64,000 bases of DNA from Candidatus Amesbacteria bacterium GW2011_GWB1_47_19 (GCA_001002325.1 LCNZ01000006.1:110492-174491), one strand, 5' to 3'; shown: positions 8,777 through 63,449, counted from the first letter of the stretch. The notes: a model not told the origin generated them from the sequence alone. Numbers and translations are program-made.

Positions 8777-9589
8777 ATGTATTTAGTATTTGATGTAGGA
8801 GGGACCACAATGCGGGTCGCGGGCAGTCCGGACGGAAGGGTGTTGGGGGATATGTCAGCGGGACCTACACCAAAGAAATACAAGCAGGGGGTGGCGGCAC
8901 TGATTGAAAAGCTGCGTTGGGCGAGCGGGAATAAGCCGATAGTGAGAACCGGAGGCGGCATTGCCGGGGTGGTAGAACAGAAAAAAGGCCTGCTGCTAGC
9001 CTCTCCTAACCTACCGGACTGGGTGGAAAAGCCTTTGAAAAACGATTTGGAGAAGGGCTTGGGTTGCCAGGTGGTGCTGGAGAATGATGCTGCCGTAGCA
9101 GGTTTGGGAGAAGCAACAGTGGGGGCTGGCAGGAGAAAAAGCATTGTCGCCTATCTGACAGTGGGGACGGGAATCGGCGGAGCCAGGATAGTCAATGGAA
9201 AAATAGATGCCAGAGCAATGGGTTTTGAGCCGGGACAACAGATAATAAATGTTGACGGACAAGTAGATTATTGGGAAAACTTTGCCTCCGGAACGGCAAT
9301 TTTTAAAATTCACGGTAAAAGGGGAGAAAATATCAAAGATCCGCAGGTGTGGGAGAATGAAGCCCGACTCCTGGCCATAGGGGTGCACAACACTTGTGTG
9401 ATGTGGTCCCCGGAGATTGTAATTATCGGCGGTTCGGTAATGCAAAGCGTATCTTTTGAAAAATTGGGAGTGCTGGTGAATGAACAATTGAAGATTTTTA
9501 CTAAAGTACCGGAGATAGTACCGGCTCAGCTGGGGGAAAAGAGCGGATTTTACGGTGGGTTGATACTGGCGGGCGGGGGAGAATTTTAG
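8777..9589 (+). CDS. ROK-family glucokinase
   Basis: LVFDVGGTTMRVA at the N-terminus and the ROK motif LENDAAVAGLGE. The stop TAG (9587-9589) overlaps the first bases of the REP1 repeat. Confidence 0.8.
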   Translation: MYLVFDVGGTTMRVAGSPDGRVLGDMSAGPTPKKYKQGVAALIEKLRWASGNKPIVRTGGGIAGVVEQKKGLLLASPNLPDWVEKPLKNDLEKGLGCQVVLENDAAVAGLGEATVGAGRRKSIVAYLTVGTGIGGARIVNGKIDARAMGFEPGQQIINVDGQVDYWENFASGTAIFKIHGKRGENIKDPQVWENEARLLAIGVHNTCVMWSPEIVIIGGSVMQSVSFEKLGVLVNEQLKIFTKVPEIVPAQLGEKSGFYGGLILAGGGEF

Positions 9590-9616
9590 CCTTCACACTC
9601 CCGGTGTGTGAAGGCT
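9588..9616. repeat. REP1 palindromic element, copy a
   Basis: AGCCTTCACAC-TCCCGGT-GTGTGAAGGCT forms an 11-bp perfect stem with a 7-nt loop. It overlaps the stop codons of both neighbouring genes. Confidence 0.75.
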
Positions 9617-10289
9617 AGGTGTCGATTAGAAGGTGCTTGATGTGATGTAGTTCTCGTTGGTAATCGGCATTGTTTAAGACGAATTGTCTATATGCCTGCC
9701 TATCAGAAAATAACTCCAATATTATTTTGGGGTTACATGTCTGGTTATAATACTCATGTGTAAATTGTTTGAATGAAGAGTACGGATAATTTTCCAGATC
9801 GGAAAATTTGTTAACAATCCCTGCTGAATAGGGATTAAGATGAATATAACGCGAAACGTGAAGAAGTTGTTGCCCATTGTCAATTTTTACAGCTTTGAAT
9901 CTTCCCTGAAATAAAGGTCCGTTTCTTCTTCGATGAGTATTAAAATATCGGGTATAACTGTTGGTAACTTTCCTGAGAAAATCTGTAATACCCTGATCGG
10001 TTAACTGTTTGACAAGCAAATGAAAATGATTTGGCATCAAACAAAAGGCAATAATTTCAATACCTGAAACTCCCTTATCCCTTCGCTGAAGAATTTCCTG
10101 TTTAAGTGATTTGGAAAGACGAATAAAATAAGAAAATCTTACAGGAGAAGCTAACTTTTGATAGTAGACGCAAGTCTCAAGCAGATGGTCATAATCCCGG
10201 GTATCCAAGAAGGTGAGTTGGTTGGTTATACCGCGATTAAAAACATGATAGACTTCCCCCGGAGTTAAAAATACTTCTCTTGAGGGCAC
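9615..10289 (-). CDS. REP-associated tyrosine transposase (RayT) / IS200-IS605 TnpA-like HUH Y1 protein
   Basis: It has the HUH motif (LMPNHFHLLV), the YHVFNRG N-terminal motif and a catalytic Tyr context (VSRYIHLNP). It has a GTG start and is flanked by two REP1 copies. Confidence 0.75.
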   Translation of the reverse strand: MPSREVFLTPGEVYHVFNRGITNQLTFLDTRDYDHLLETCVYYQKLASPVRFSYFIRLSKSLKQEILQRRDKGVSGIEIIAFCLMPNHFHLLVKQLTDQGITDFLRKVTNSYTRYFNTHRRRNGPLFQGRFKAVKIDNGQQLLHVSRYIHLNPYSAGIVNKFSDLENYPYSSFKQFTHEYYNQTCNPKIILELFSDRQAYRQFVLNNADYQRELHHIKHLLIDT

Positions 10290-10308
10290 GAGTATATTGT
10301 AGCACTTT

Positions 10309-10337
10309 AGCCTTCACACTCCCGGTGTGTGAAGGCT
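10309..10337. repeat. REP1 palindromic element, copy b
   Basis: Identical core to copy a. It contains the last five codons and the TGA stop of lon. Confidence 0.75.
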
Positions 10338-12758
10338 GAGGGGGAAAGAGTGTTTGGGACGGGGATGGCCGTTGGATAAGAGGGAGCGCAGGGCGACTTT
10401 GAGAACTTCATCCAGATGAGAGACGAAATGGAATTTGAGATCCCGTTTGACACTCTGGGGGACGTCTTCCAGATCTTTGCGGTTTTCCCGGGGAAGAATG
10501 ACCTGACGGATGCCGGCCCGGTGAGCGGCGATGACTTTTTCCTTTACTCCGCCGATTTCCAGCACTCGACCGCGCAGAGTAATTTCTCCCGTCATGGCCA
10601 AGTCCCGGCGGGTAGGCACTTTAGTAAGGGCTGAAATAATAGCCGTGGCAATGGCGATACCTGCAGACGGCCCATCCTTGGGAACCGCACCTTCGGGAAC
10701 GTGAATATGAATATCCATTTTTTTGTAAAAATCTTCTTTGAGGCCCAGAGTCTGCCAGCGGGTACGAATGTAGGAATAAGCGGCTTTGGCGGATTCTTTC
10801 ATAACATCACCCAGCTGGCCGGTGAGCTGGACATCCCCTTTGCCGGGCATAAGGGCAACTTCAATAAATATGATGTCCCCGCCGGCTTCGGTCCAGGCCA
10901 GGCCGGTACTCATACCGATCTCGTCCTTTTTTTCAGCTAAAGTTTCCGGAAAACGCTGAGGACCTAATAGTTTGCGGATGTCTGCCAGAGCAATTTCCGG
11001 TTTGACGCGCTTTTTTTCAGCCAATTGACGGGCGAGCTTGCGACAAATCTTGGCCAGATGGCGTTCCAAGTCTCGGACTCCGGCTTCGCGGGTATAACGA
11101 CTAGTGATTTCCTTCAGAGCCGCCGGGGACAGGCGTAATTTGTTGCCCATACCGTTGGCTGTCAGCTGTTTTGGCCAGAGGAAATCGGCGGCGATATGCT
11201 GTTTTTCATCCAGAGTGTAGCCGGGGAAGGTAATGACTTCCAGCCGGTCCCTGAGAGCCGGGGGGATAGTATCCAGGAGGTTGGCGGTAGTGATAAACAT
11301 GACCCGGGACAGATCGTACGGCACCTCCAGATAATGATCGGAAAACTCGCGATTTTGTTCGGGATCAAGAGCTTCCAGTAAAGCTGCAGAGGGGTCCCCG
11401 CGGTAATCGTTGGCCAGTTTGTCTATTTCGTCCAACATGAAGACCGGGTTACCGGTGCTGGCATTTTTCACCCCCTGAATGATCCGGCCGGGCATACTGC
11501 CGACGTAAGTCCGGCGATGACCCCGGATTTCTGCTTCGTCACGGACACCGCCAAGAGACACCCGTACGAACTTGCGCCCCAGGGACCTGGCTATGGATTT
11601 ACCGATGGAGGTTTTACCCACACCGGGAGGGCCGACGAAACACAAAATGGTTGGTCCTGATGAGCTTTCTTCCTGAGGCTGACGGGCTTTCAGTTTCATA
11701 ACAGCCAGGTATTCCAGTATCCGCTCTTTGACCTTTTTCAAACCGAAATGGTCCGCGTCCAAAACCTTGGCGGCTTTGTCTATGGAAACATGGTTTGGGG
11801 AAAGATGGCTCCAGGGCATATCCACCAGCCAGTCGAGGTAAGTGTGGATGTAATTGGATTCGGGATTCTGGGGACTCATCTGGGCCAGACGGTTTAATTC
11901 TTTCTCGGCTTTGGCGCGAACAGGGGCGGGCATGCGGGCTTGTTTGATTTTTTTTCTGAAGACGGAAATGTCATCATCTTCCTCACTGTTGTCGGCACCC
12001 AGTTTTTCCAATTCCTCCTGAATGGTTTTTTTGCGCTCGCGCAGTACCTGCTCCCGCATATTTTTTTCAAATTTGGCGTGGGTTTTTGAGGATATGGATT
12101 TTTCCAGCTCCAGAACTTTGACTTCATGAACGAGGTAATGCAACACTTCATCGAGACGTTTGTCCACCGACAGGTTTTCCAGCAAACCCTGTTTGATCTG
12201 GGTGGAAATCTCCAGAGAGTTGGCGACCTGGTCCGCCAGTTCGGAAGCGGAAACTCCGGCCATGAGGCGCATGAATACCGGAAAATCCACGGATTTACCC
12301 AGGTTGAAAGCGTTTTTGAATTCCGTAATCACCTGTCGGGCGAGAGCTACCAGCTGGTCGTTTTCGGTCTGCTGTTCGGGCAAAATGTGAACGGGAGCGG
12401 CGAAAAAAGGTTCGGTGGATGAGTAAGGGCCGATTTTTACCCGGGTAACACCCCGGACCTGAGCCAGAATTTCCTGGCCGTAAGGGGCTACCTGTTCAAT
12501 TGTGCATAAAGTGCCGATCGGATAAAGATCGTCGGGAGTCGGAACAGCGGTAGAATTTTTCTGGGCGACAAAAATTATTTTTTTATCCTGATGAACGGCT
12601 GTTTCTATAGCGGCGTTGCTTTTTGGCCGGCCGAATGTCAGATGAGCTTCAGTGTGAGGAAAAACCACACCTTCACGCAGTGCAACAACCGGGAAAGTCC
12701 GGGGCGTTTGGGGCGCAGGAGTTCCGGGGACAGGGACACGATTTATGGAAAACGCCAT
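10314..12758 (-). CDS. lon: ATP-dependent Lon protease
   Basis: Lon N-domain, AAA+ Walker A (GPPGVGKTS) and the Ser-Lys protease domain ([19 protein letters not shown]). The C-terminal ...HTPGV* is encoded inside REP1. Confidence 0.95.
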
Positions 12759-27681: not shown

Positions 27682-27755
27682 TGGGGGATCGTCTAACGGT
27701 AGGACGACAGACTCTGAATCTGTTAATTGGGGTTCGAATCCCTGTCCCCCAGCCA
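27682..27755 (+). tRNA. tRNA-Gln (anticodon CUG), CCA encoded
   Basis: Hand-folded: acceptor TGGGGGA/TCCCCCA, D-arm GTCT..GGAC, anticodon stem ACAGA/TCTGT with loop CTCTGAA, T-arm TGGGG-TTCGAAT-CCCTG, discriminator G, CCA. It resembles E. coli tRNA-Gln. Confidence 0.85.
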
Positions 27756-29246
27756 GTAAGGAGAAGAAAGAGGTTGGGAGGTAGCGCTTTCCGCGCCCCC
27801 GCCTTGCCGGCAGGCAGGCGCCTCCGCAGAAAGCGCGTCAAATCCGCCTTTTTTGAAACTTGCGGACAGCCGCCGATCCTTTAAAAAGAAGTTCGAGCCG
27901 ACAGTTTTTGCCATGATAGATAAATCATGGCAACTATTTTTTGCGCGCGCGATTTTGTGCGCTGAAAGCGCACTATTTAACTCAGCGCCGTTTTGGGAAA
28001 CTTCCTTGATTTTGGAGTTGAGAAGCGATTTTGTTTCGATAAGTTCGTTCTTTTTCTTTTGATAATCTTCGGGGCTAACAATTTTGTCTAAATATCCCTC
28101 GAGCAAACGATCTGTTTTTTCCTCTGTTTCTTTTAGTTGCAGTTGATAAGTTGAAATAATACCGGACGATTTCCCTTTTTCGCTGTTTGCGTCTTTATCC
28201 GCCCACTCGAGAAACTTTTTGGCGGCGTGCGGCGGCAATGATGCTCGCAAAACAATCTCTTTTAGTTGTTTTTCAATTTCCCCTTTATCAATATATTTTT
28301 GCGAGCAATTACCCATTTTCTTGGAGCAGCGATAGTAAATATATTCAGCGGTTCTATTGGTTCGGTTATAATACTTGGTATGTTTTTCCGCCGTAATTGC
28401 GCCGCCGCATTCGCCGCACTTCACCAAACCGAGAAAATCAAATAAGTGTTTATTGTTTTTAACTTTTCTTGTTTTTAATTTCACTATATCTTGACATTTA
28501 TCAAAAAGTTTCTTTGAGATTAAAGGCGGGTGATTGCCTTCGTAAAGTTCGCCGCAAAATTTCATCACTCCGTAGTAAAACGGATCGGTCAAAATTCTTT
28601 TGACTTTATCCAAATGAAGTTCATGGCCGGACTTGTTGAAAATTTTGTTTTGGTTGAAAAATTTGCGGATATCAGCATATCCATAGCCGCCGGTAGCAAA
28701 AAGCTGAAAAGCTTTTTGCACATACTTGGCTCGTTTTTTATCAACCTCTATTTTCTTATTAATATTTATATAACCAAACTGAGCTTGATTTGGCCACTCA
28801 CCGCGGCGAAGTTTTTGACGATTGCCTCGCTTTACATTTTCGGAAAGATTATCCACATAATACTTTGATTGTCCAAACGCGATATTGAGCATAAATTTTC
28901 CTTGGGGGGTGTTTTCAAACCAGAATGAGGGAAATTTTAGATCAAGCAATTTTCCGGTATCTAATAAATAGATAATCTTTCCGCCGTCAACAGAGTTTCT
29001 GGCTAAACGGTCTGGATGCCATGATAAAATTCCATCAGCTTTTCCGTCCTCAATTTCTTTTAGGACTTCTGCAAATTTTTCTCTGCCTGGTTCTTTGGCG
29101 GTTTTACTCTCGGTAATAAAAGAAACGATCTTTAATCCTTCTTTTGCGGCGTGTTCTTCAAGTTCGGCAACTTGAGCCTCAATGGACAAAATTTGTCTGT
29201 CCGGTTCATCCGTAGATTTTCTGCAATACGCTATATATTTAATCAT
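27723..29246 (-). CDS. Large serine recombinase (resolvase domain, recombinase domain, zinc ribbon)
   Basis: N-terminal catalytic motif YCRKSTDEPDRQILSIEAQ, a recombinase domain and a CX2C...C zinc ribbon (KCGECGGAIT...YYRCS). The last ~50 codons (approx. 27723-27872) read through IR X' and into the tRNA, so the true C-terminus is probably shorter. Confidence 0.85.
   Translation of the reverse strand: MIKYIAYCRKSTDEPDRQILSIEAQVAELEEHAAKEGLKIVSFITESKTAKEPGREKFAEVLKEIEDGKADGILSWHPDRLARNSVDGGKIIYLLDTGKLLDLKFPSFWFENTPQGKFMLNIAFGQSKYYVDNLSENVKRGNRQKLRRGEWPNQAQFGYININKKIEVDKKRAKYVQKAFQLFATGGYGYADIRKFFNQNKIFNKSGHELHLDKVKRILTDPFYYGVMKFCGELYEGNHPPLISKKLFDKCQDIVKLKTRKVKNNKHLFDFLGLVKCGECGGAITAEKHTKYYNRTNRTAEYIYYRCSKKMGNCSQKYIDKGEIEKQLKEIVLRASLPPHAAKKFLEWADKDANSEKGKSSGIISTYQLQLKETEEKTDRLLEGYLDKIVSPEDYQKKKNELIETKSLLNSKIKEVSQNGAELNSALSAHKIARAKNSCHDLSIMAKTVGSNFFLKDRRLSASFKKGGFDALSAEAPACRQGGGAESATSQPLSSPYWLGDRDSNPN
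27749..27870. repeat. Inverted repeat X' (left copy, reverse complement of X)
   Basis: Its reverse complement matches 29349-29470 with a single mismatch over about 122 bp. It is GC-rich and begins with CCAGCCA, which also forms the tRNA-Gln 3' end. Confidence 0.85.
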
Positions 29247-29348
29247 GGTTGCTTTATCTCTTAAAAGTTCTTTAAACGAACGATAGTGAGCAGTCCCGAT
29301 TATTCATCGGGACAATTTTTGCGTTTTTTCTTCCTTCTTTTTACGGCG

Positions 29349-29470
29349 GCTGTCCGCAAGTTTCAAAAAAGGCGGATTTGACGCGCTTTCTGCGGAGGCG
29401 CCTGCCTGCCGGCAAGGCAGGGGCGCGGAAAGCGCTACCTCCCAACCTCTTTCTTCTCCTTACTGGCTGG
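29349..29470. repeat. Inverted repeat X (right copy)
   Basis: See the X' entry. The ORF 29378..29728 inside it is a spurious frame. Confidence 0.85.
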
Positions 29471-29563
29471 CGGTTTACGAAAAATGTCGAACTTCATTTG
29501 ATTAGCTCGGCCTTCGGCCTCGCTTGCTCCAGCGCGGCGCCCCCACCCGCCGCGCCTACGAAA
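29466..29563. repeat. Inverted repeat Y (left copy)
   Basis: It is a perfect reverse complement of 30829-30926 over about 98 bp. It overlaps X by the 5-bp GCTGG core. Confidence 0.85.
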
Positions 29564-44987: not shown

Positions 44988-45050
44988 CTGCGTGGTATTT
45001 TACCCTATCTTTGGGGAAAGTCGTGCTGATGGAGAGTATAATCGTCACGC

Positions 45051-45266
45051 ATGGCAAATACGGCAATTGAATATTCCGAATTTATGCGGGTGAATTGTTA
45101 TCCCTGCGAAATGAAGGAAATTACAAATGACGGAACCAGATTGTACCGGGCATGCGATAAAAACGGTGTACCTAAATTTATACAAGACGGTTTTTGCCTA
45201 ATCGCGGTCGTACGGGGACAGGCGGGAACGATGACTAATGAGGGATTTGTTAAAAAAATCGCTTGA
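45051..45266 (+). CDS. Small zinc-ribbon-like protein, paralog 1
   Basis: 71 aa. Shares the pattern NCxxC...C...GxC[LV][IF]A[VT]V[RK]xQxGxMTxxGF with the downstream ORF. Confidence 0.45.
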   Translation: MANTAIEYSEFMRVNCYPCEMKEITNDGTRLYRACDKNGVPKFIQDGFCLIAVVRGQAGTMTNEGFVKKIA

Positions 45267-45379
45267 AACCTGGTCCTATTGCTTCAGCTCCGGACCTGGC
45301 CTAGACTTTGGGCGGAAGCGACAGGAGCGATAGTTTAATATATTGAAAAAAAGCTTATAATAAGTGATATAATAGATAC

Positions 45380-45601
45380 ATGGCCTGGAATAAGGAAGTG
45401 GAATCCATGTTTGTAGTTTTGAACTGCCGATCCTGTGATAACAATGTATTACGGAATGGTGCTTTCAGGTGTCAGGTCCGAAAGGCCGGAAAATTCAGGC
45501 GAAAGGGGGAGTGTGTTTTTGCAACGGTGAAAGATCAGCCGGGAAAGATGACATTCAAAGGGTTTATTGCATACGAGACAAGTTCCTGGGCGGGATTTTA
45601 G
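45380..45601 (+). CDS. Small zinc-ribbon-like protein, paralog 2
   Basis: 73 aa. See paralog 1. It has its own TATAAT-like promoter upstream. Confidence 0.45.
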   Translation: MAWNKEVESMFVVLNCRSCDNNVLRNGAFRCQVRKAGKFRRKGECVFATVKDQPGKMTFKGFIAYETSSWAGF

Positions 45602-45741
45602 GTTGTGGCTTTTTTATACCCCATATATTAAAAACTTCTCCGGAATCAAACTGATTACTCTGCCTTCCCCGTCACCGCGCTATGCGGCCCTAAGTCTGCA
45701 GGCCAAATATACCCTGTATCTCAAACTTCTACCGCAATTGT

Positions 45742-45767
45742 AGCCTTCACATACCGGAAGTGTGATG
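45742..45767. repeat. REP1 palindromic element, degenerate copy
   Basis: AGCCTTCACA-TACCGGAAG-TGTGATG. It shares the left arm with REP1 but the right arm has diverged. It lies just 3' of the stop of the 45772-46836 gene. Confidence 0.5.
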
Positions 45768-45771
45768 TTGA

Positions 45772-46836
45772 TTATTCCAGGGGGCCCATGGGGAAGGAAG
45801 CCTGTGATATTTCGTTGGCTAAATTTATAACCGGTACCCGGGTGCGGGCCCGGAAATCGTAAACGTAAATCTGCTGGGACCATTGATTGTAGTAGGAAAC
45901 TTCTGACACAGACACCCGGTTGTTATCCAGCCATCGGCCGCAGTATGAATACTGCTGTCCGGAACTGAGTGTCTTTTTTGCCGCCAGATCGTAAAGGATA
46001 TAACCGAAATATCCGGAACTGCCGTTTCCGAAACACACTTTGTTACCGTCGGCATTGGCTATCACTTTTCCGGCATATTCGGCAGCCGTCGCTTCCGTAT
46101 CCGTAATATCCCCGGTAATTCTGTTTATCTGCATTAAATGGACGGGACAGCAGTCCTCTTCCGGTATCCAAAAAAGATAATTATTGTTATTGGCCGGATA
46201 TGCACCGTAGCCGGTATCTACTTCCGCCAGTTTCTCCGCCTCCGGCCAGATCCGGTAAATCCCGTCGCCCATGCTCGCCTCTAATGTGTCGTTATTCCAC
46301 CAGACCCCCATCTCCCCGTTCAGGTCGTCCGGAATTGTCCCCTGATATACTACCTCTGCCTTGATCTCTTCCTTATACGGCTTACTTGCCGGCATATTCG
46401 TGATCTTTACGACCGCAAATTTGTCATAAATTACCGCCGCCAGCCATTTGCTGTTTTTATCCCAGGATATCAATTCATTGTCCGGATACCTGTTTTCCGG
46501 ATCTTTCATTACTTTCCAGATTTCCGCCAGAGACTCCCTCTGGACAAAATAATCCGAAGTTTGTTCCGTAATATATAACTCAAAGGTTTCCACCCCCTCC
46601 CGGGCATAATCGGCCAGGTATGCCAGGTACTTCCCGTCCGGTGACAGTGTCCCCACATCGATATCCCTCCAGATACCGCGCCTTCTGTCCGGCGTCGGTT
46701 CAATATCCTGGCATTTCGGACACGGCTCGCTGACCTTAACATTTTTCTTGATATTTAAGGCCAAAATCCCGTACCCGGCCCAAAGTATGACTGCCGTCAT
46801 CCCCGCCAACACTACCACCTTACTCTTCACAATCAT
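45772..46836 (-). CDS. Membrane-anchored hypothetical protein with a TolB-like beta-propeller signature
   Basis: An N-terminal TM helix and LSPDGKYLAY-type repeats. Confidence 0.45.
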   Translation of the reverse strand: MIVKSKVVVLAGMTAVILWAGYGILALNIKKNVKVSEPCPKCQDIEPTPDRRRGIWRDIDVGTLSPDGKYLAYLADYAREGVETFELYITEQTSDYFVQRESLAEIWKVMKDPENRYPDNELISWDKNSKWLAAVIYDKFAVVKITNMPASKPYKEEIKAEVVYQGTIPDDLNGEMGVWWNNDTLEASMGDGIYRIWPEAEKLAEVDTGYGAYPANNNNYLFWIPEEDCCPVHLMQINRITGDITDTEATAAEYAGKVIANADGNKVCFGNGSSGYFGYILYDLAAKKTLSSGQQYSYCGRWLDNNRVSVSEVSYYNQWSQQIYVYDFRARTRVPVINLANEISQASFPMGPLE

Positions 46837-48155: not shown

Positions 48156-48374
48156 TTGGTGGATGCGGTAGAAACCTTCGTCCTCGAAGGAATCGGGGTT
48201 TATCATCCGCTTTATAAACTTCTGGAAAAATATCCCAATCGGAAAATCATATTGACCAACGCTGATGACGCCCAATTAATTGAATTCGGGCTTATCGATC
48301 TGCCTTACGAACTTTTTTCTCTGAAACACAATCCGAATAAGGAGGACTCCGGGTACTATAAGCAGATGATGTAG
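48156..48374 (+). CDS. Hypothetical protein, possibly truncated (3' end partially duplicated at 49693)
   Basis: 72-aa ORF. The downstream frames contain further protein-like segments (GIISYHYDPEKKDLESLKEFLDKNTTS), which suggests a frameshifted longer gene. Confidence 0.3.
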   Translation: MVDAVETFVLEGIGVYHPLYKLLEKYPNRKIILTNADDAQLIEFGLIDLPYELFSLKHNPNKEDSGYYKQMM

Positions 48375-48501
48375 TGTATTTTGAACATAATCCAGAGGCG
48401 GTAATAAGTGCCCAATCGGCGGGGATAATTTCATATCATTATGATCCCGAGAAAAAGGATTTGGAGAGCTTGAAGGAGTTTTTGGACAAAAACACTACCA
48501 G

Positions 48502-48543
48502 TTAATAAGGACAATCCTTTAAGGATAATCCTTTGGGACTATA
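48502..48543. repeat. Operator-like palindromic repeat, copy A (contains the 13-bp palindrome AAGGATAATCCTT)
   Basis: TTAATAAGGACAATCCTTTAAGGATAATCCTTTGGGACTAT. A near-identical copy is at 49731-49772. Confidence 0.55.
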
Positions 48544-48557
48544 CAAATTCCCGTGGT

Positions 48558-48586
48558 TAGCCTGCACACACCGGGAGTGTGAAAGC
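48558..48586. repeat. REP1 palindromic element, inverted-orientation copy
   Basis: AGCCTGCACAC-ACCGGGA-GTGTGAAAGCT. The loop is the reverse complement of the REP1 loop. Confidence 0.6.
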
Positions 48587-48637
48587 TAAATACATTGGCT
48601 AAACCTTGTGGTATATAATACTTGAAGATTAATAATT

Positions 48638-54048: not shown

Positions 54049-54079
54049 TAGCCTCGCTACCTGAAAGGTGACGAGGCTA
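54049..54079. repeat. REP2 palindromic element, copy 1
   Basis: TAGCCTCG-CT-ACC-TGAAA-GGT-GA-CGAGGCTA is a two-tier hairpin. It lies 3 nt 3' of the NUDIX stop. Confidence 0.65.
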
Positions 54080-54081
54080 CA

Positions 54082-54576
54082 CTACTCCAAGTCCTGCGCA
54101 GTTAATTGCTCTCCGGTAGAGAATTTTTTAACTTTATCCAAATGGCCAAGCAGAAGGGTTATTAAGTCCGGTACCAAGTCAAGGTGGATTAATTCGTCGG
54201 GAGAAAAAAATTTTATATTCTGCCCTTCGTTTCCTTTCCTGATATGAGATATCTGTTCAGGAGTCAACGCGACCGTGCCGATATATTTATGGTGACCCTG
54301 ATCGTCACCCGCTAACAATTTGCCCAGGATTCGGGTTTGACCGGGCAGGAGAGTAATATTAGCTTCCTCAAGCAGTTCACGCCCGAGCGTCTGATCCGGA
54401 GTTTCTCCCAATTCCCCTACACCGCCCAGAAGCCCCCATTTGTCGGGATGGGGGATATTTGGGTTATTATCCCTGAGCTTGAGCAAGAGTTCACCGTCCG
54501 GTGAAACAACCAAAGCTCCGCAGGAAAAGGGATATGTCCCAATCTTCGTCTCAACATCAACAGCTTCCATTACCAT
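54082..54576 (-). CDS. NUDIX hydrolase (MutT-like)
   Basis: Nudix box GLLGGVGELGETPDQTLGRELLEEANI. Confidence 0.75.
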   Translation of the reverse strand: MVMEAVDVETKIGTYPFSCGALVVSPDGELLLKLRDNNPNIPHPDKWGLLGGVGELGETPDQTLGRELLEEANITLLPGQTRILGKLLAGDDQGHHKYIGTVALTPEQISHIRKGNEGQNIKFFSPDELIHLDLVPDLITLLLGHLDKVKKFSTGEQLTAQDLE

Positions 54577-54660
54577 AACCTCGGGTATTTTACTATAAAT
54601 ACGGGTTATGGGGATTAATGACGATTTGTGTTCCGGTTGAAATGTTGGTGCGAAATGTCT

Positions 54661-54689
54661 AGCCTCGCTACCTGAAAGGTGGCGTGCCT
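54661..54689. repeat. REP2 palindromic element, copy 2
   Basis: AGCCTCGCTACCTGAAAGGTGGCGTGCCT, in the same orientation as copy 1. Confidence 0.65.
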
Positions 54690-54733
54690 AAAGGTTCTAG
54701 TGACCAGGTTTTAGAGGTGGTATTCTGTTTGAT

Positions 54734-56781: not shown

Positions 56782-58602
56782 ATGCCTGAAATACGAAATA
56801 TAGCCGTGATTGCCCATGTGGACCACGGCAAAACCACGCTGGTAGATGCGCTTCTTAAGCAGACGCATGTTTTCCGGGAAAACGAGGCGGAAATGAGCCA
56901 GACCCTGATCATGGACAGCAACGAGCTTGAACGGGAACGGGGAATCACGATTTTGGCCAAAAACTGCTCTGTGAGGTATAGGGACGTAAAAATCAACATT
57001 ATTGACACGCCCGGACACGCGGATTTTTCCGGGGAAGTGGAAAGAACCCTGGGGATGGCCGACGGGGCACTATTAATAGTAGACGCGGCGGAAGGGCCTA
57101 TGCCCCAGACCCGGTTTGTCCTGAAAAAAGCGCTGGAGCTGAAACTGGCGATTATTGTGGTGATTAATAAAATCGATAAAAGGTTTTCCAGGCCGGCGGA
57201 AACCCTGAAGAAAATTGAAACACTGTTTCTGGAACTGGCGGCAGACCACGCCCAGCTGGAATTCCCGGTGTTGTATGCCGTAGGACGGGAAGGAACAGTT
57301 TTTGACCGGATACCAGAGACTGCGGATGCAAAAGGCGACGTGACTCCCCTGCTGGAAGCGATCGTAGCGCATGTTCCCCCAGCCCGGAACCGACCGGGGC
57401 CGTTTAAAATGGTGATCAGCTCGTTGGATTGGGATCCGCACCTGGGGAGGATTGCCGTGGGCAAGATTTACCGGGGAAAAATTGAAAAAGGAATGAAAGT
57501 GGTAACGGCCAACCGGCTGACCAACATCAGAACCGTGGAAAAACTGATGGTATACGAAGGACTGAAGCGAACGGAAACGCAGGCGGAAGAAAGTGGGGAA
57601 ATTGTCTCCCTGTGCGGACTGTCTGATGTAAAAATCGGAGAGACGGTGTGCGATCCGGCGGAAATCACGGCACTGCCCGGAGTAGAGATAGGAGAGCCGA
57701 CACTGCACATCCTGATAGGTCCGAACACCTCACCGTTTGCCGGACGTGAAGGCCAATTTACCACAGGCAGGCAGTTGGAAGAACGGCTGCTACGGGAGCT
57801 GGAAAGCAACCTGAGTTTGCGGGTGGAAAAAAACGGTGGAAAATTTATTGTCTCCGGACGGGGTGAGCTGCATCTGGCGATACTTCTGGAAACCATGCGC
57901 CGGGAAGGCTATGAATTGGAGGCCGGTAAACCGGAAGTAATTGTTAAAAAAGGAGCCGGAGAGACGCTGGAACCAGTGGAAGAAGTGTCCGTGATCGTAC
58001 CCCATCAACATTTGGGAATAATTAGTGAAGAATTCGGCAAGAGGCTGGGAAAACTTTTGAAAATGGACCCCATATCGGAGCAGGAAACGGAATTTATATA
58101 CCATATTCCGACCCGGGCGGTATTGGGCCTGAGAAGCCAGTTGATGACGGCCACCCGGGGAACCATGATTTACTCGAGTGTGATTTTGGGTTACGAAAAG
58201 ATGGGTAAACCGGTTACCGGGAACCGGAGGGGGGTACTGGTAGCCAGCGAGCCCGGACAAGCCCTGGCTTACGGCCTGGAAAATGCCCAAGGGAGGGGGG
58301 CGACGTTTATCGAACCGGCGACTGCGGTGTACGAGGGAATGATTGTAGGCATAAACGCCAAAGAAGGCGATATTTCCATCAATGTTTGCAAAGGAAAGAA
58401 GCTGACCAATATGCGGTCCAAATCCCACGACAGCGTCATCCAGCTGACACCGCCGGTAATATTGACTCTGGAACAAGCGCTGGATTTTCTGGAAGACGAC
58501 GAACTGCTGGAAATTACCCCCCTAGCCCTGAGGCTGCGTAAAAAACACCTGACGGAATTGGAGAGACGTAGAGCCGGCAGGCTTCACACTCCCGGTGTGT
58601 GA
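56782..58602 (+). CDS. typA: Translational GTPase TypA/BipA
   Basis: AHVDHGKTTLVDALL G1 motif and the five-domain EF-G-like architecture. The C-terminal ...HTPGV* is encoded inside REP1. Confidence 0.95.
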   Translation: MPEIRNIAVIAHVDHGKTTLVDALLKQTHVFRENEAEMSQTLIMDSNELERERGITILAKNCSVRYRDVKINIIDTPGHADFSGEVERTLGMADGALLIVDAAEGPMPQTRFVLKKALELKLAIIVVINKIDKRFSRPAETLKKIETLFLELAADHAQLEFPVLYAVGREGTVFDRIPETADAKGDVTPLLEAIVAHVPPARNRPGPFKMVISSLDWDPHLGRIAVGKIYRGKIEKGMKVVTANRLTNIRTVEKLMVYEGLKRTETQAEESGEIVSLCGLSDVKIGETVCDPAEITALPGVEIGEPTLHILIGPNTSPFAGREGQFTTGRQLEERLLRELESNLSLRVEKNGGKFIVSGRGELHLAILLETMRREGYELEAGKPEVIVKKGAGETLEPVEEVSVIVPHQHLGIISEEFGKRLGKLLKMDPISEQETEFIYHIPTRAVLGLRSQLMTATRGTMIYSSVILGYEKMGKPVTGNRRGVLVASEPGQALAYGLENAQGRGATFIEPATAVYEGMIVGINAKEGDISINVCKGKKLTNMRSKSHDSVIQLTPPVILTLEQALDFLEDDELLEITPLALRLRKKHLTELERRRAGRLHTPGV

Positions 58603-58607
58603 AAGCT
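58579..58607. repeat. REP1 palindromic element, copy e
   Basis: AGGCTTCACAC-TCCCGGT-GTGTGAAAGCT. It contains the typA stop codon. Confidence 0.7.
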
Positions 58608-58653
58608 GAATGTGAGCAAACCGACATTGTTTTTTGGCGGATTATGATACACT

Positions 58654-62982: not shown

Positions 62983-63015
62983 CTAGGCTCGCTACCTGAA
63001 AGGTGGCGTGGCTAG
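62983..63015. repeat. REP2 palindromic element, copy 3
   Basis: CTAGGCTCGCTACCTGAAAGGTGGCGTGGCTAG. It overlaps the stop codon of the 63012-63449 gene. Confidence 0.65.
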
Positions 63016-63449
63016 AGGGTAGGGGTGAGATTTTCCGGGAAAGCGCGGAGGACGGGATTGAGCTGGATGTTTTGGGCAGTAACACTGCCATCTGAGTTTT
63101 CCGTTCCGAACACCGAGACTTTTTCCCCCACTTTCAATTCTTCGGGTGTACCCGAAGCGGCTTTGTTGATCTCTGTTTTGTCGGATAAAATGACGATTTT
63201 GCTGCCTCCGTCATTGAGTTTGACGGTGAAGGATTTGTCATCCCGATTGATAATTTCCCCGGCGACGGGACGGAATCCCATACGATTACCATTACCGCTG
63301 GGCACACCCCTGAACTGCAGGTTACCATCGGGACGGTTGAACCCCGTGGTGCGTTTTGACGTCTGATATTTCATACCGGCAAAAAAGCCTCCGCCGCCGG
63401 CGATAGCGACTGCAGCAATTATTAATAAAATTACAGTTTGTTTATTCAA
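63012..63449 (-). CDS. Hypothetical exported protein (DUF5666-like)
   Basis: Signal/TM segment and a repetitive beta-rich region. Confidence 0.4.
   Translation of the reverse strand: MNKQTVILLIIAAVAIAGGGGFFAGMKYQTSKRTTGFNRPDGNLQFRGVPSGNGNRMGFRPVAGEIINRDDKSFTVKLNDGGSKIVILSDKTEINKAASGTPEELKVGEKVSVFGTENSDGSVTAQNIQLNPVLRAFPENLTPTL

Follow-up and report, generated by a model that had tools for sequence, protein, structure and literature searches.

The genes lon and typA of a groundwater Candidatus Amesbacteria both end inside copies of one short palindromic repeat, here termed REP1, which supplies their last codons, their common C-terminal pentapeptide HTPGV and their stop codon. This had been claimed, codon for codon, in the original prediction for the same DNA, and all coordinates given there proved correct. 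Our analysis covers a stretch of 64,000 nt (in the following, the window). We consider it likely that REP1 represents the cognate repeat of a RayT-type gene in a compact Amesbacteria genome and that its copies sit at gene 3′ ends, where they close open reading frames and swap variable protein tails.

REP1 is a 31-nt palindrome of the form NTAGCCTTCACAC-N7-GTGTGAAGGCTAR that occurs in five copies in the window, compared with 0.00–0.02 expected by chance (Table 1). A pattern search with its 27-nt core yielded four matches against 0.00 expected in shuffled sequence: the cores at 9589–9615 and 10310–10336 contain no mismatch, while those at 58580–58606 and 48560–48586 contain two each, the latter in opposite orientation. 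The head of the repeat reads NTAG (TTAG in most copies, GTAG in four and CTAG in three), so that the TAG is conserved and the G is not; the related species L002 (see below) has ...GTGTGTGGTAG. Intact copies are predicted to fold into a stem of 11–14 bp with a 7-nt loop and an RNA folding energy of −18.6 to −22.6 kcal/mol. The more stable value belongs to copy 1 (z = −4.7) and the less stable one to copy 2 (z = −3.6), which as DNA reaches −11.9 kcal/mol. Copy 5 at typA has lost two stem pairs and its folding energy (−13.2 kcal/mol, z = −0.9) lies at the level of shuffled sequence, which suggests an older copy whose structure is not under selection. No T-tract was found 3′ of the REP stems, and a terminator scan scored none of the REPs. 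Since the stems lack a T-tract, the REPs do not look like intrinsic terminators, and we rejected this assignment.

Table 1. Repeat copies and the genes they end or adjoin, in the window and on related metagenome contigs (handles beginning with L)
Feature	Location	Strand	Sequence	Remarks
ROK-family sugar kinase gene	8777..9589	plus		stop TAG at 9587-9589 = head of REP1 copy 1
REP1 copy 1	9587..9617		TAGCCTTCACAC-TCCCGGT-GTGTGAAGGCTA	between the convergent ROK kinase and RayT genes
RayT-like Y1/HUH transposase gene	9615..10289	minus		224 aa; Pfam Y1_Tnp, E = 7e-10
REP1 copy 2	10308..10338		TAGCCTTCACAC-TCCCGGT-GTGTGAAGGCTG	between lon and the RayT gene; 11-12 bp stem, 7-nt loop
REP-encoded lon end	10314..10337	minus	AGC CTT CAC ACA CCG GGA GTG TGA	S L H T P G V stop
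lon	10314..12758	minus		814 aa, complete; Pfam LON_substr_bdg, AAA, Lon_lid, Lon_C
REP1 copy 3	45741..45771			degenerate; from pattern search
REP1 copy 4	48558..48588			opposite orientation, intergenic; nearest stop 53 nt upstream of the copy
REP2 copy	54049..54079			2 nt from the stop (54082-54084) of the 164-aa ORF
164-aa ORF	54082..54576	minus		NUDIX-like by eye only; bracketed by two REP2 copies
REP2 copy	54660..54690			divergent intergenic region upstream of the 54082..54576 ORF
typA/bipA	56782..58602	plus		606 aa, complete; GTP_EFTU, EFG_C, BipA_C
REP1 copy 5	58578..58608		CAGGCTTCACAC-TCCCGGT-GTGTGAAAGCTG	decayed; head CAGG = native typA sequence
REP-encoded typA end	58582..58602	plus	CTT CAC ACT CCC GGT GTG TGA	L H T P G V stop
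REP2 copy	62984..63014		TAGGCTCGCTACCTGAAAGGTGGCGTGGCTA	outer triplet 63012-63014 = TAG stop of the DUF5666 gene
DUF5666 gene	63012..63449	minus		assigned by Pfam
NUDIX hydrolase gene	L015			ends SLHTPGV-stop in REP1
Membrane-like hypothetical ORF	L023			ends ...GSLHTPGV-stop in REP1
MORN-repeat protein gene	L012/L024			ends AFTHRECEG-stop in REP1
SNase-like gene	L013/L020			stop = REP1 head TAG
Nucleotidyltransferase gene	L016			stop = REP1 head TAG
M23 peptidase gene	L022			stop TAA 1 nt before REP1

The RayT-like gene, present once in the window, is bracketed by copies 1 and 2, the former overlapping its stop (TAG at 9615–9617, CTA on the plus strand) and the latter lying 19 nt before its start. 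A RayT-type gene bracketed in this way by a palindrome with dispersed copies across the genome corresponds to the definition of a REPtron (PMC2817692). The encoded protein carries an HUH motif (PNHFHLL) and a tyrosine motif (SRYIHLNPY), of which HFH and the tyrosine are invariant in three orthologs; orthologs on two other Amesbacteria contigs (53% identity) keep both motifs. Against the NCBIfam model REP_Tyr_transpos (NF047646) the protein scores 57.1 bits and hence falls under the curated cutoff of 80, and its matches in the PDB, E. coli TnpAREP (4er8) and ISDra2 TnpA (2xm3), are weak (E ~ 2–3e-3). It is distantly related to the proteobacterial RayTs that presumably underlie NF047646. The family of ~224-aa proteins to which it belongs comprises more than 7,900 homologs at E ≤ 1e-10, whose named sources are Patescibacteria (Amesbacteria, Levyibacteria, Gottesmanbacteria); homologs with a source name are annotated only as 'transposase' or 'hypothetical'. 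Many of these homologs are found on contigs of only 1–3 kb, which may reflect assembly breaks at REP-like repeats. In a second species, an orthologous RayT gene is bracketed by REP1 in another genomic context (L012/L024).

In both RayT-flanking copies the loop reads TCCCGGT on the plus strand, which makes them direct repeats by an orientation call that relies on three loop bases only. The REP1 5′ arm and a flanking TAAA(A/G)T also form a sigma70-like match on the minus strand at 9583–9612 and at 10304–10333 (TTCACA-18 nt-TAAAGT or TAAAAT, 9–10/12), one of which lies directly upstream of the RayT start. Such matches are no commoner than in shuffles, and we rejected them as evidence.

At lon, REP1 sequence makes up the last seven codons and the stop. 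In the 814-aa protein, Lon_C extends to residue 791 and is followed by a variable tail of 23 residues. The orthologs, which stem from Amesbacteria (Microgenomates, within the CPR), have variable, Pro/Ser-rich tails of 0–30 residues beyond a conserved ...LKxALR, and many of them end in ...TAVA, ...TAIA or ...TATA. The other 119 Lon homologs listed all lack HTPGV. In the cluster of at least 90% identity, both members that reach the C-terminus end in HTPGV and a third stops at residue 665. With relatives at 77–83% protein identity, the DNA of the tail is too diverged to place a breakpoint: it becomes unalignable after ...GCCCTGCG, and the 3′ end of lon before the insertion could not be reconstructed from the DNA of L001, L002, L027 and L028.

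The neighbourhood of lon also differs among relatives. No RayT gene lies beside lon on L001, L027 and L028, and on L012 the RayT gene is in a different context, but the adjacency of lon and rayT is common to Amesbacteria GW2011_GWA1_47_16 (L002, 79% Lon identity). The palindromes that flank RayT in this genome, ...CACCTCGGGGGTGTGTGGTAG, differ from REP1 and lie outside the coding sequence, beginning ~17 nt past the lon stop. Since the adjacency is shared and the palindromes are not, the REP at the lon-rayT junction appears to be an old resident whose sequence has been turned over. In the lineage of the window, the lon reading frame now ends inside this resident junction REP, and the gap between the lon stop and the RayT start is 24 nt. 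The reading frames of lon and RayT are moreover the same, and over 10289–10316 the TGA of the REP is the sole barrier between them: the RayT stop-to-stop frame begins at the codon directly after the lon stop, and read-through of the TGA would give a Lon-RayT fusion. This common frame is probably a coincidence.

At typA, the relatives permit a more precise comparison. BipA_C extends to residue 591 of the 606, which leaves 15 residues up to a C-terminus that reads ...RAGRLHTPGV. This TypA matches the protein of Candidatus Amesbacteria bacterium GW2011_GWB1_47_19 with 100% identity. Relatives commonly have ...LTELxR[RK]RAGR, followed by 0 to ~11 dissimilar residues (e.g. AGTSIQVA or VYTEKDVQGPD), and HTPGV is absent from the other 119 TypA homologs listed, while all nine members of the cluster of at least 90% identity end in it. 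We aligned the DNA with that of the two closest relatives (L026 and L025, with 77% and 75% protein identity, respectively). All three sequences are conserved through GCC GGC AGG, GCCGGCAGG is kept in all three species, and CTTCACACTCCCGGTGTGTGAAAGCTGA then follows in the window alone. The breakpoint of homology in this nucleotide alignment is sharp and falls at the exact start of the REP core. The canonical TAGCC head is missing from this copy, its position being occupied by the conserved native GGC AGG, and the inserted unit and its boundaries are therefore uncertain. Removal of 27 nt restores an in-frame 12-aa tail downstream of the REP (NVSKPTLFFGGL, then a stop) that might be read as the displaced typA end; it resembles no relative, and we made no use of it.

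No REP-less allele of lon or typA was found in the clusters of at least 90% identity, and the tail change is fixed in the species. The tails are thus encoded by the repeat and specific to the lineage, as originally proposed: HTPGV does not occur in any of the other 238 homologs listed, so that no REP-free ortholog with this ending is among them, and the homology of typA is lost at the REP core. The original prediction further spoke of the rewriting of C-termini in two essential genes, of which the repeat-derived tails stand, while 'essential' is unsupported. Model bacteria can dispense with Lon and with TypA/BipA. A reassignment of UGA as a sense codon was considered and rejected, as Lon and TypA are full-length (814 and 606 aa) and contain no in-frame TGA.

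The two genes lie on opposite strands and nevertheless receive the same peptide. REP1 contains only three asymmetric bases, all in the loop and spaced by 3 nt, and in the frame that uses the TGA each of them is a third codon position (ACA/ACT, CCG/CCC and GGA/GGT). Because of this, both orientations of the repeat encode the same residues. What other frames would encode follows from the consensus, TTAGCC TTCACAC N7 GTGTGAA GGCTAA, which carries a stop in six of six frames, namely TAG at entry, TGA in the 3′ arm and TAA, TAG or TGA at exit. In frame a, on either strand, the head TAG itself is the stop. In frame b, the repeat reads xTA GCC TTC ACA ... GAA GGC TAA/TAG/TGA and gives AFT(LPV/HRE)CEG-stop, and in frame c it reads xxT AGC CTT CAC ACN CCS GGN GTG TGA and gives SLHTPGV-stop. 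Since each frame of both strands contains a stop, any reading frame that enters REP1 is closed within at most ~10 codons. Closure of six frames is found in 3% of random 33-nt palindromes of the same base composition; copies of a second repeat, REP2 (see below), close five of six frames and the E. coli REP consensus closes two of six. The six-frame closure of REP1 need not have been selected, since it follows in part from the extended palindrome TTAG...CTAA.

All three outcomes are realized in genes on related metagenome contigs that were recovered by the REP core (Table 1), so that further REP copies do overlap stops, as had been predicted. In the window, the two outer triplets of REP1 copy 1 are the stops of the ROK kinase and RayT genes, again as foreseen. 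At copy 3, the head TAG ends a plus-strand gene remnant of 58 aa, and the other end of this copy is abutted by the TAA (45772–45774) of a 354-aa minus-strand gene. Short, fragmented reading frames that look like gene remnants or pseudogenes lie beside copies 3 and 4 (45000–45750 and 48156–48505, respectively), and one such set near copy 4 consists of adjoining frames of 72 and 43 aa in different frames.

Around 11 more distinct REP1 copies lie on the related metagenome contigs. Our census accordingly amounts to ~16 distinct copies from the 64-kb window and 13 metagenome loci, a small sample that was seeded by exact matches; in ~13 of these ~16 copies the stop of a reading frame falls inside the repeat or at most 8 nt away, and three to four of the ~16 overlap coding sequence by 6–9 codons. 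Copy 4 is the only clearly free-standing copy in the window. The REP1 sequences at lon and typA recur in independent assemblies, i.e. in four named Amesbacteria MAGs as well as in ENA and JGI contigs, and since they are identical there, the REP-encoded ends are not an assembly artefact. Three contigs (L004, L017 and L018) reproduce the order lon-REP-rayT-REP-ROK base for base. A search of genome contigs with the REP core yielded only Omnitrophota and one further MAG, in which the core is related. In the Omnitrophota MAG (JBDRJF010000001.1; L005, 280–2455), a 219-aa RayT-like homolog is bracketed by the perfect palindrome TTCACACCCCCGGGGTGTGAA, and a neighbouring gene of 489 aa reads through one REP copy and ends in ...NPTSHPGGVNKC before its stop; the same REP core and a REP-encoded tail therefore occur in another phylum.

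REP2 (TAGCCTCGCTACCTGAAAGGTGGCGAGGCTA) is present in three copies in the window, starting at 54049, 54660 and 62984, and shares the TAGCC...GGCTA ends with REP1. The outer triplet of one copy coincides with the stop of the DUF5666 gene, which agrees with what had been claimed for this gene. The other two bracket a non-transposase reading frame, and the window shows no further RayT gene. Another locus of repeats in the window involves the tRNA-Gln gene at 27682–27755, into which the 3′ end of a serine-recombinase-like reading frame of 507 aa extends (27723..29246, minus strand). Flanking and following it are two pairs of long, near-perfect inverted repeats, 27746–27875/29344–29473 (130 nt, 98%) and 29466–29560/30832–30926 (95 nt, 99%), and the region 27682–30926 resembles an integrated element, or an invertible one, at a tRNA gene.

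How the gene ends arose can be pictured as follows. Where intergenic spacers are very short, the REP copies that survive would be those on or against gene 3′ ends, and this passive reading is the best supported one. A reading frame that runs into REP1 would gain (S/R)LHTPGV in the frame that uses the TGA. Lon and TypA would have lost the last residues of a variable, non-conserved extension and gained a REP-encoded heptapeptide or hexapeptide, respectively. As the REP closes all frames, the cost would be confined to the swap of a few residues in already variable tails outside the folded domains. The REP tails are most likely neutral for both proteins, and any function would be expected at the level of the RNA, where a stable hairpin would span the stop as in other REPs near stops. 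As to the route, we infer either an insertion of the repeat or a fusion of the gene to a neighbouring REP. For the latter, the REP would already have been located downstream, and a small deletion or the loss of the stop would have extended the reading frame into it. We hold this possible, though somewhat less probable. At lon, it would concern the resident REP that flanks RayT: the lon copy brackets RayT and the adjacency of both genes predates the species, so lon may indeed have been fused to a resident REP, for which the REP-like palindromes shortly behind the lon stop of L002 and the small gap between lon and RayT in the window also speak. However, the REP of L002 differs in sequence from REP1, which implies that the junction REP itself was replaced, and the situation at typA, with different neighbours in the relatives and a homology that stops sharply at the REP core without a spacer, is more like an insertion or replacement. 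Since the REP closes every frame, both routes lead to an identical outcome. The claim that the repeats had invaded gene 3′ ends holds for the REP-encoded ends as such, but at lon a fusion may have taken the place of a new insertion.

The remaining alternatives concern the question of why stops and repeats coincide. The NTAG head might be a target or guide tetranucleotide that is not mobile, RayT inserting directly 3′ of (N)TAG or CAG-like sites of the host, among which TAG stops would be those that are tolerated; the stops would then be the genes' own. The tetranucleotide target of IS608, TTAC, offers an analogy. This fits the genes whose TAG is the exact head triplet (ROK, RayT twice, the SNase-like gene, the nucleotidyltransferase and DUF5666), the variable base before the TAG (T, G or C) and the native GGC AGG in place of TAGCC at typA. 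We nevertheless regard it as unlikely, because the head pairs with the 3′ end GGCTA in the palindrome and is conserved together with the CC, as would be expected of a part of the repeat, because REP2 has the same TAGCC head, and because the orthologs of ROK and RayT end at other residues, which does not point to a pre-existing TAG at the same place. Still somewhat less probable, and argued by analogy, is that the hairpin over the stop is kept as a regulatory device that would modulate termination, ribosome stalling with tmRNA tagging, or the stability of the mRNA 3′ end. In E. coli, REPs at most 15 nt from a stop stall ribosomes, as far as reported through reference 17 as cited in PMC12306157; the lon copy and the copy between ROK and RayT fold well, and the tails are fixed in the species. 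Yet the stem at typA has decayed to the level of shuffled sequence, which argues against selection on structure, a T-tract terminator signature is missing and the orthologs do without a hairpin. That HTPGV is instead a convergent functional signal on Lon and TypA, such as a degron or a localization tag, we consider highly improbable. It is present on at least three real proteins (Lon, TypA and NUDIX) and on one hypothetical protein, but the identity extends at the nucleotide level over 21–27 nt in a dispersed repeat that is intergenic as well, none of the listed orthologs has the peptide, and other genes obtain a different peptide or none depending only on the frame. The comparison of orthologs thus rules out a conserved functional HTPGV motif.

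[quoted passage not shown] 2013, PMC3733652). REP1 resembles the GTAG REPtrons of Proteobacteria (Nunvar 2010, PMC2817692; Messing 2012, PMC3479197; PMC3733652) as a dispersed, imperfect palindrome of ~31 nt with an NTAG head, in the single Y1/HUH gene that is directly bracketed by two copies, and in its preference for the 3′ ends of reading frames, with the terminal TAG used as a stop and occasional copies inside coding ends. It differs from them in its host, a CPR bacterium, and in its head, which mostly reads TTAG or CTAG rather than GTAG. The RayT-like protein, at ~224 aa and under the NCBIfam RayT cutoff, departs from E. coli TnpAREP (chain 4er8_A, 165 residues). In a classical REPtron the flanking REPs are inverted, whereas those of RayT here are direct by their loops, and the E. 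coli REP consensus leaves most frames open that the REP1 consensus closes.

Other families lend themselves to comparison as well. With IS200/IS605 elements (the TnpA proteins of IS608 and ISDra2; PDB 2xm3) the RayT locus shares the HUH/Y1 domain, hairpins of the same strand on both sides and an adjacent conserved tetranucleotide. Unlike these elements, the locus has no TnpB gene, and its flanking hairpins do not differ from each other or from the dispersed solo copies. The gene is single-copy in the window, and at least one further Amesbacteria species (L002) has it beside lon; this suggests that the RayT is domesticated and not an active insertion sequence. Rickettsia RPEs and the intragenic GTAG/CGTC REPs of Opitutus terrae and others (PMC3733652) likewise add repeat-encoded residues to conserved housekeeping proteins that are not destroyed by them; these insertions are mostly internal and in frame and add 20–80 aa, whereas REP1 replaces the extreme C-terminal tail only and supplies the stop. 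For E. coli, PMC12306157 relates from its reference 17 that a REP within 15 nt of a stop codon makes ribosomes stall and reduces translation, and REP1 likewise would place a stable hairpin at the termination site. The E. coli REP begins downstream of the stop, as far as that account goes, while the REP1 stop lies in the 3′ arm of the hairpin in the Amesbacteria case. A ribosome would consequently have to unwind the REP1 hairpin completely, and by analogy the efficiency of termination or the stability of the mRNA may be affected. In the literature that we searched, no paper on RAYT in the CPR was found. New in the present case are the CPR host, the REP/RayT family, the heptapeptide that does not depend on orientation and the closure of six frames.

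The ends of lon and typA provide a clean example of a selfish or domesticated palindromic repeat that gives conserved housekeeping proteins new extreme C-termini, most likely without harm. They also indicate that REP/RayT systems, mainly known from Proteobacteria, exist in CPR genomes with minimal intergenic space, and they carry a warning for annotation, as a C-terminal peptide that unrelated proteins share (SLHTPGV, AFT..CEG) can be encoded by a repeat. It is doubtful, though conceivable, that REP1, and REP2 to a lesser degree, is adapted to gene ends as a bidirectional three-frame stop cassette, or that the RayT of CPR bacteria inserts beside TAG. If either were true, gene 3′ ends would be the primary niche of a large, undescribed RayT/REP family found across the CPR. 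As a stop cassette, the NTAG head and the TGA of the stem would allow the repeat to colonize the last codons, the sole free space in an ultra-compact genome, without giving rise to run-on proteins. Should the six-frame stops or the TAG targeting prove to be selected, this would inform how mobile repeats adapt to compact genomes.
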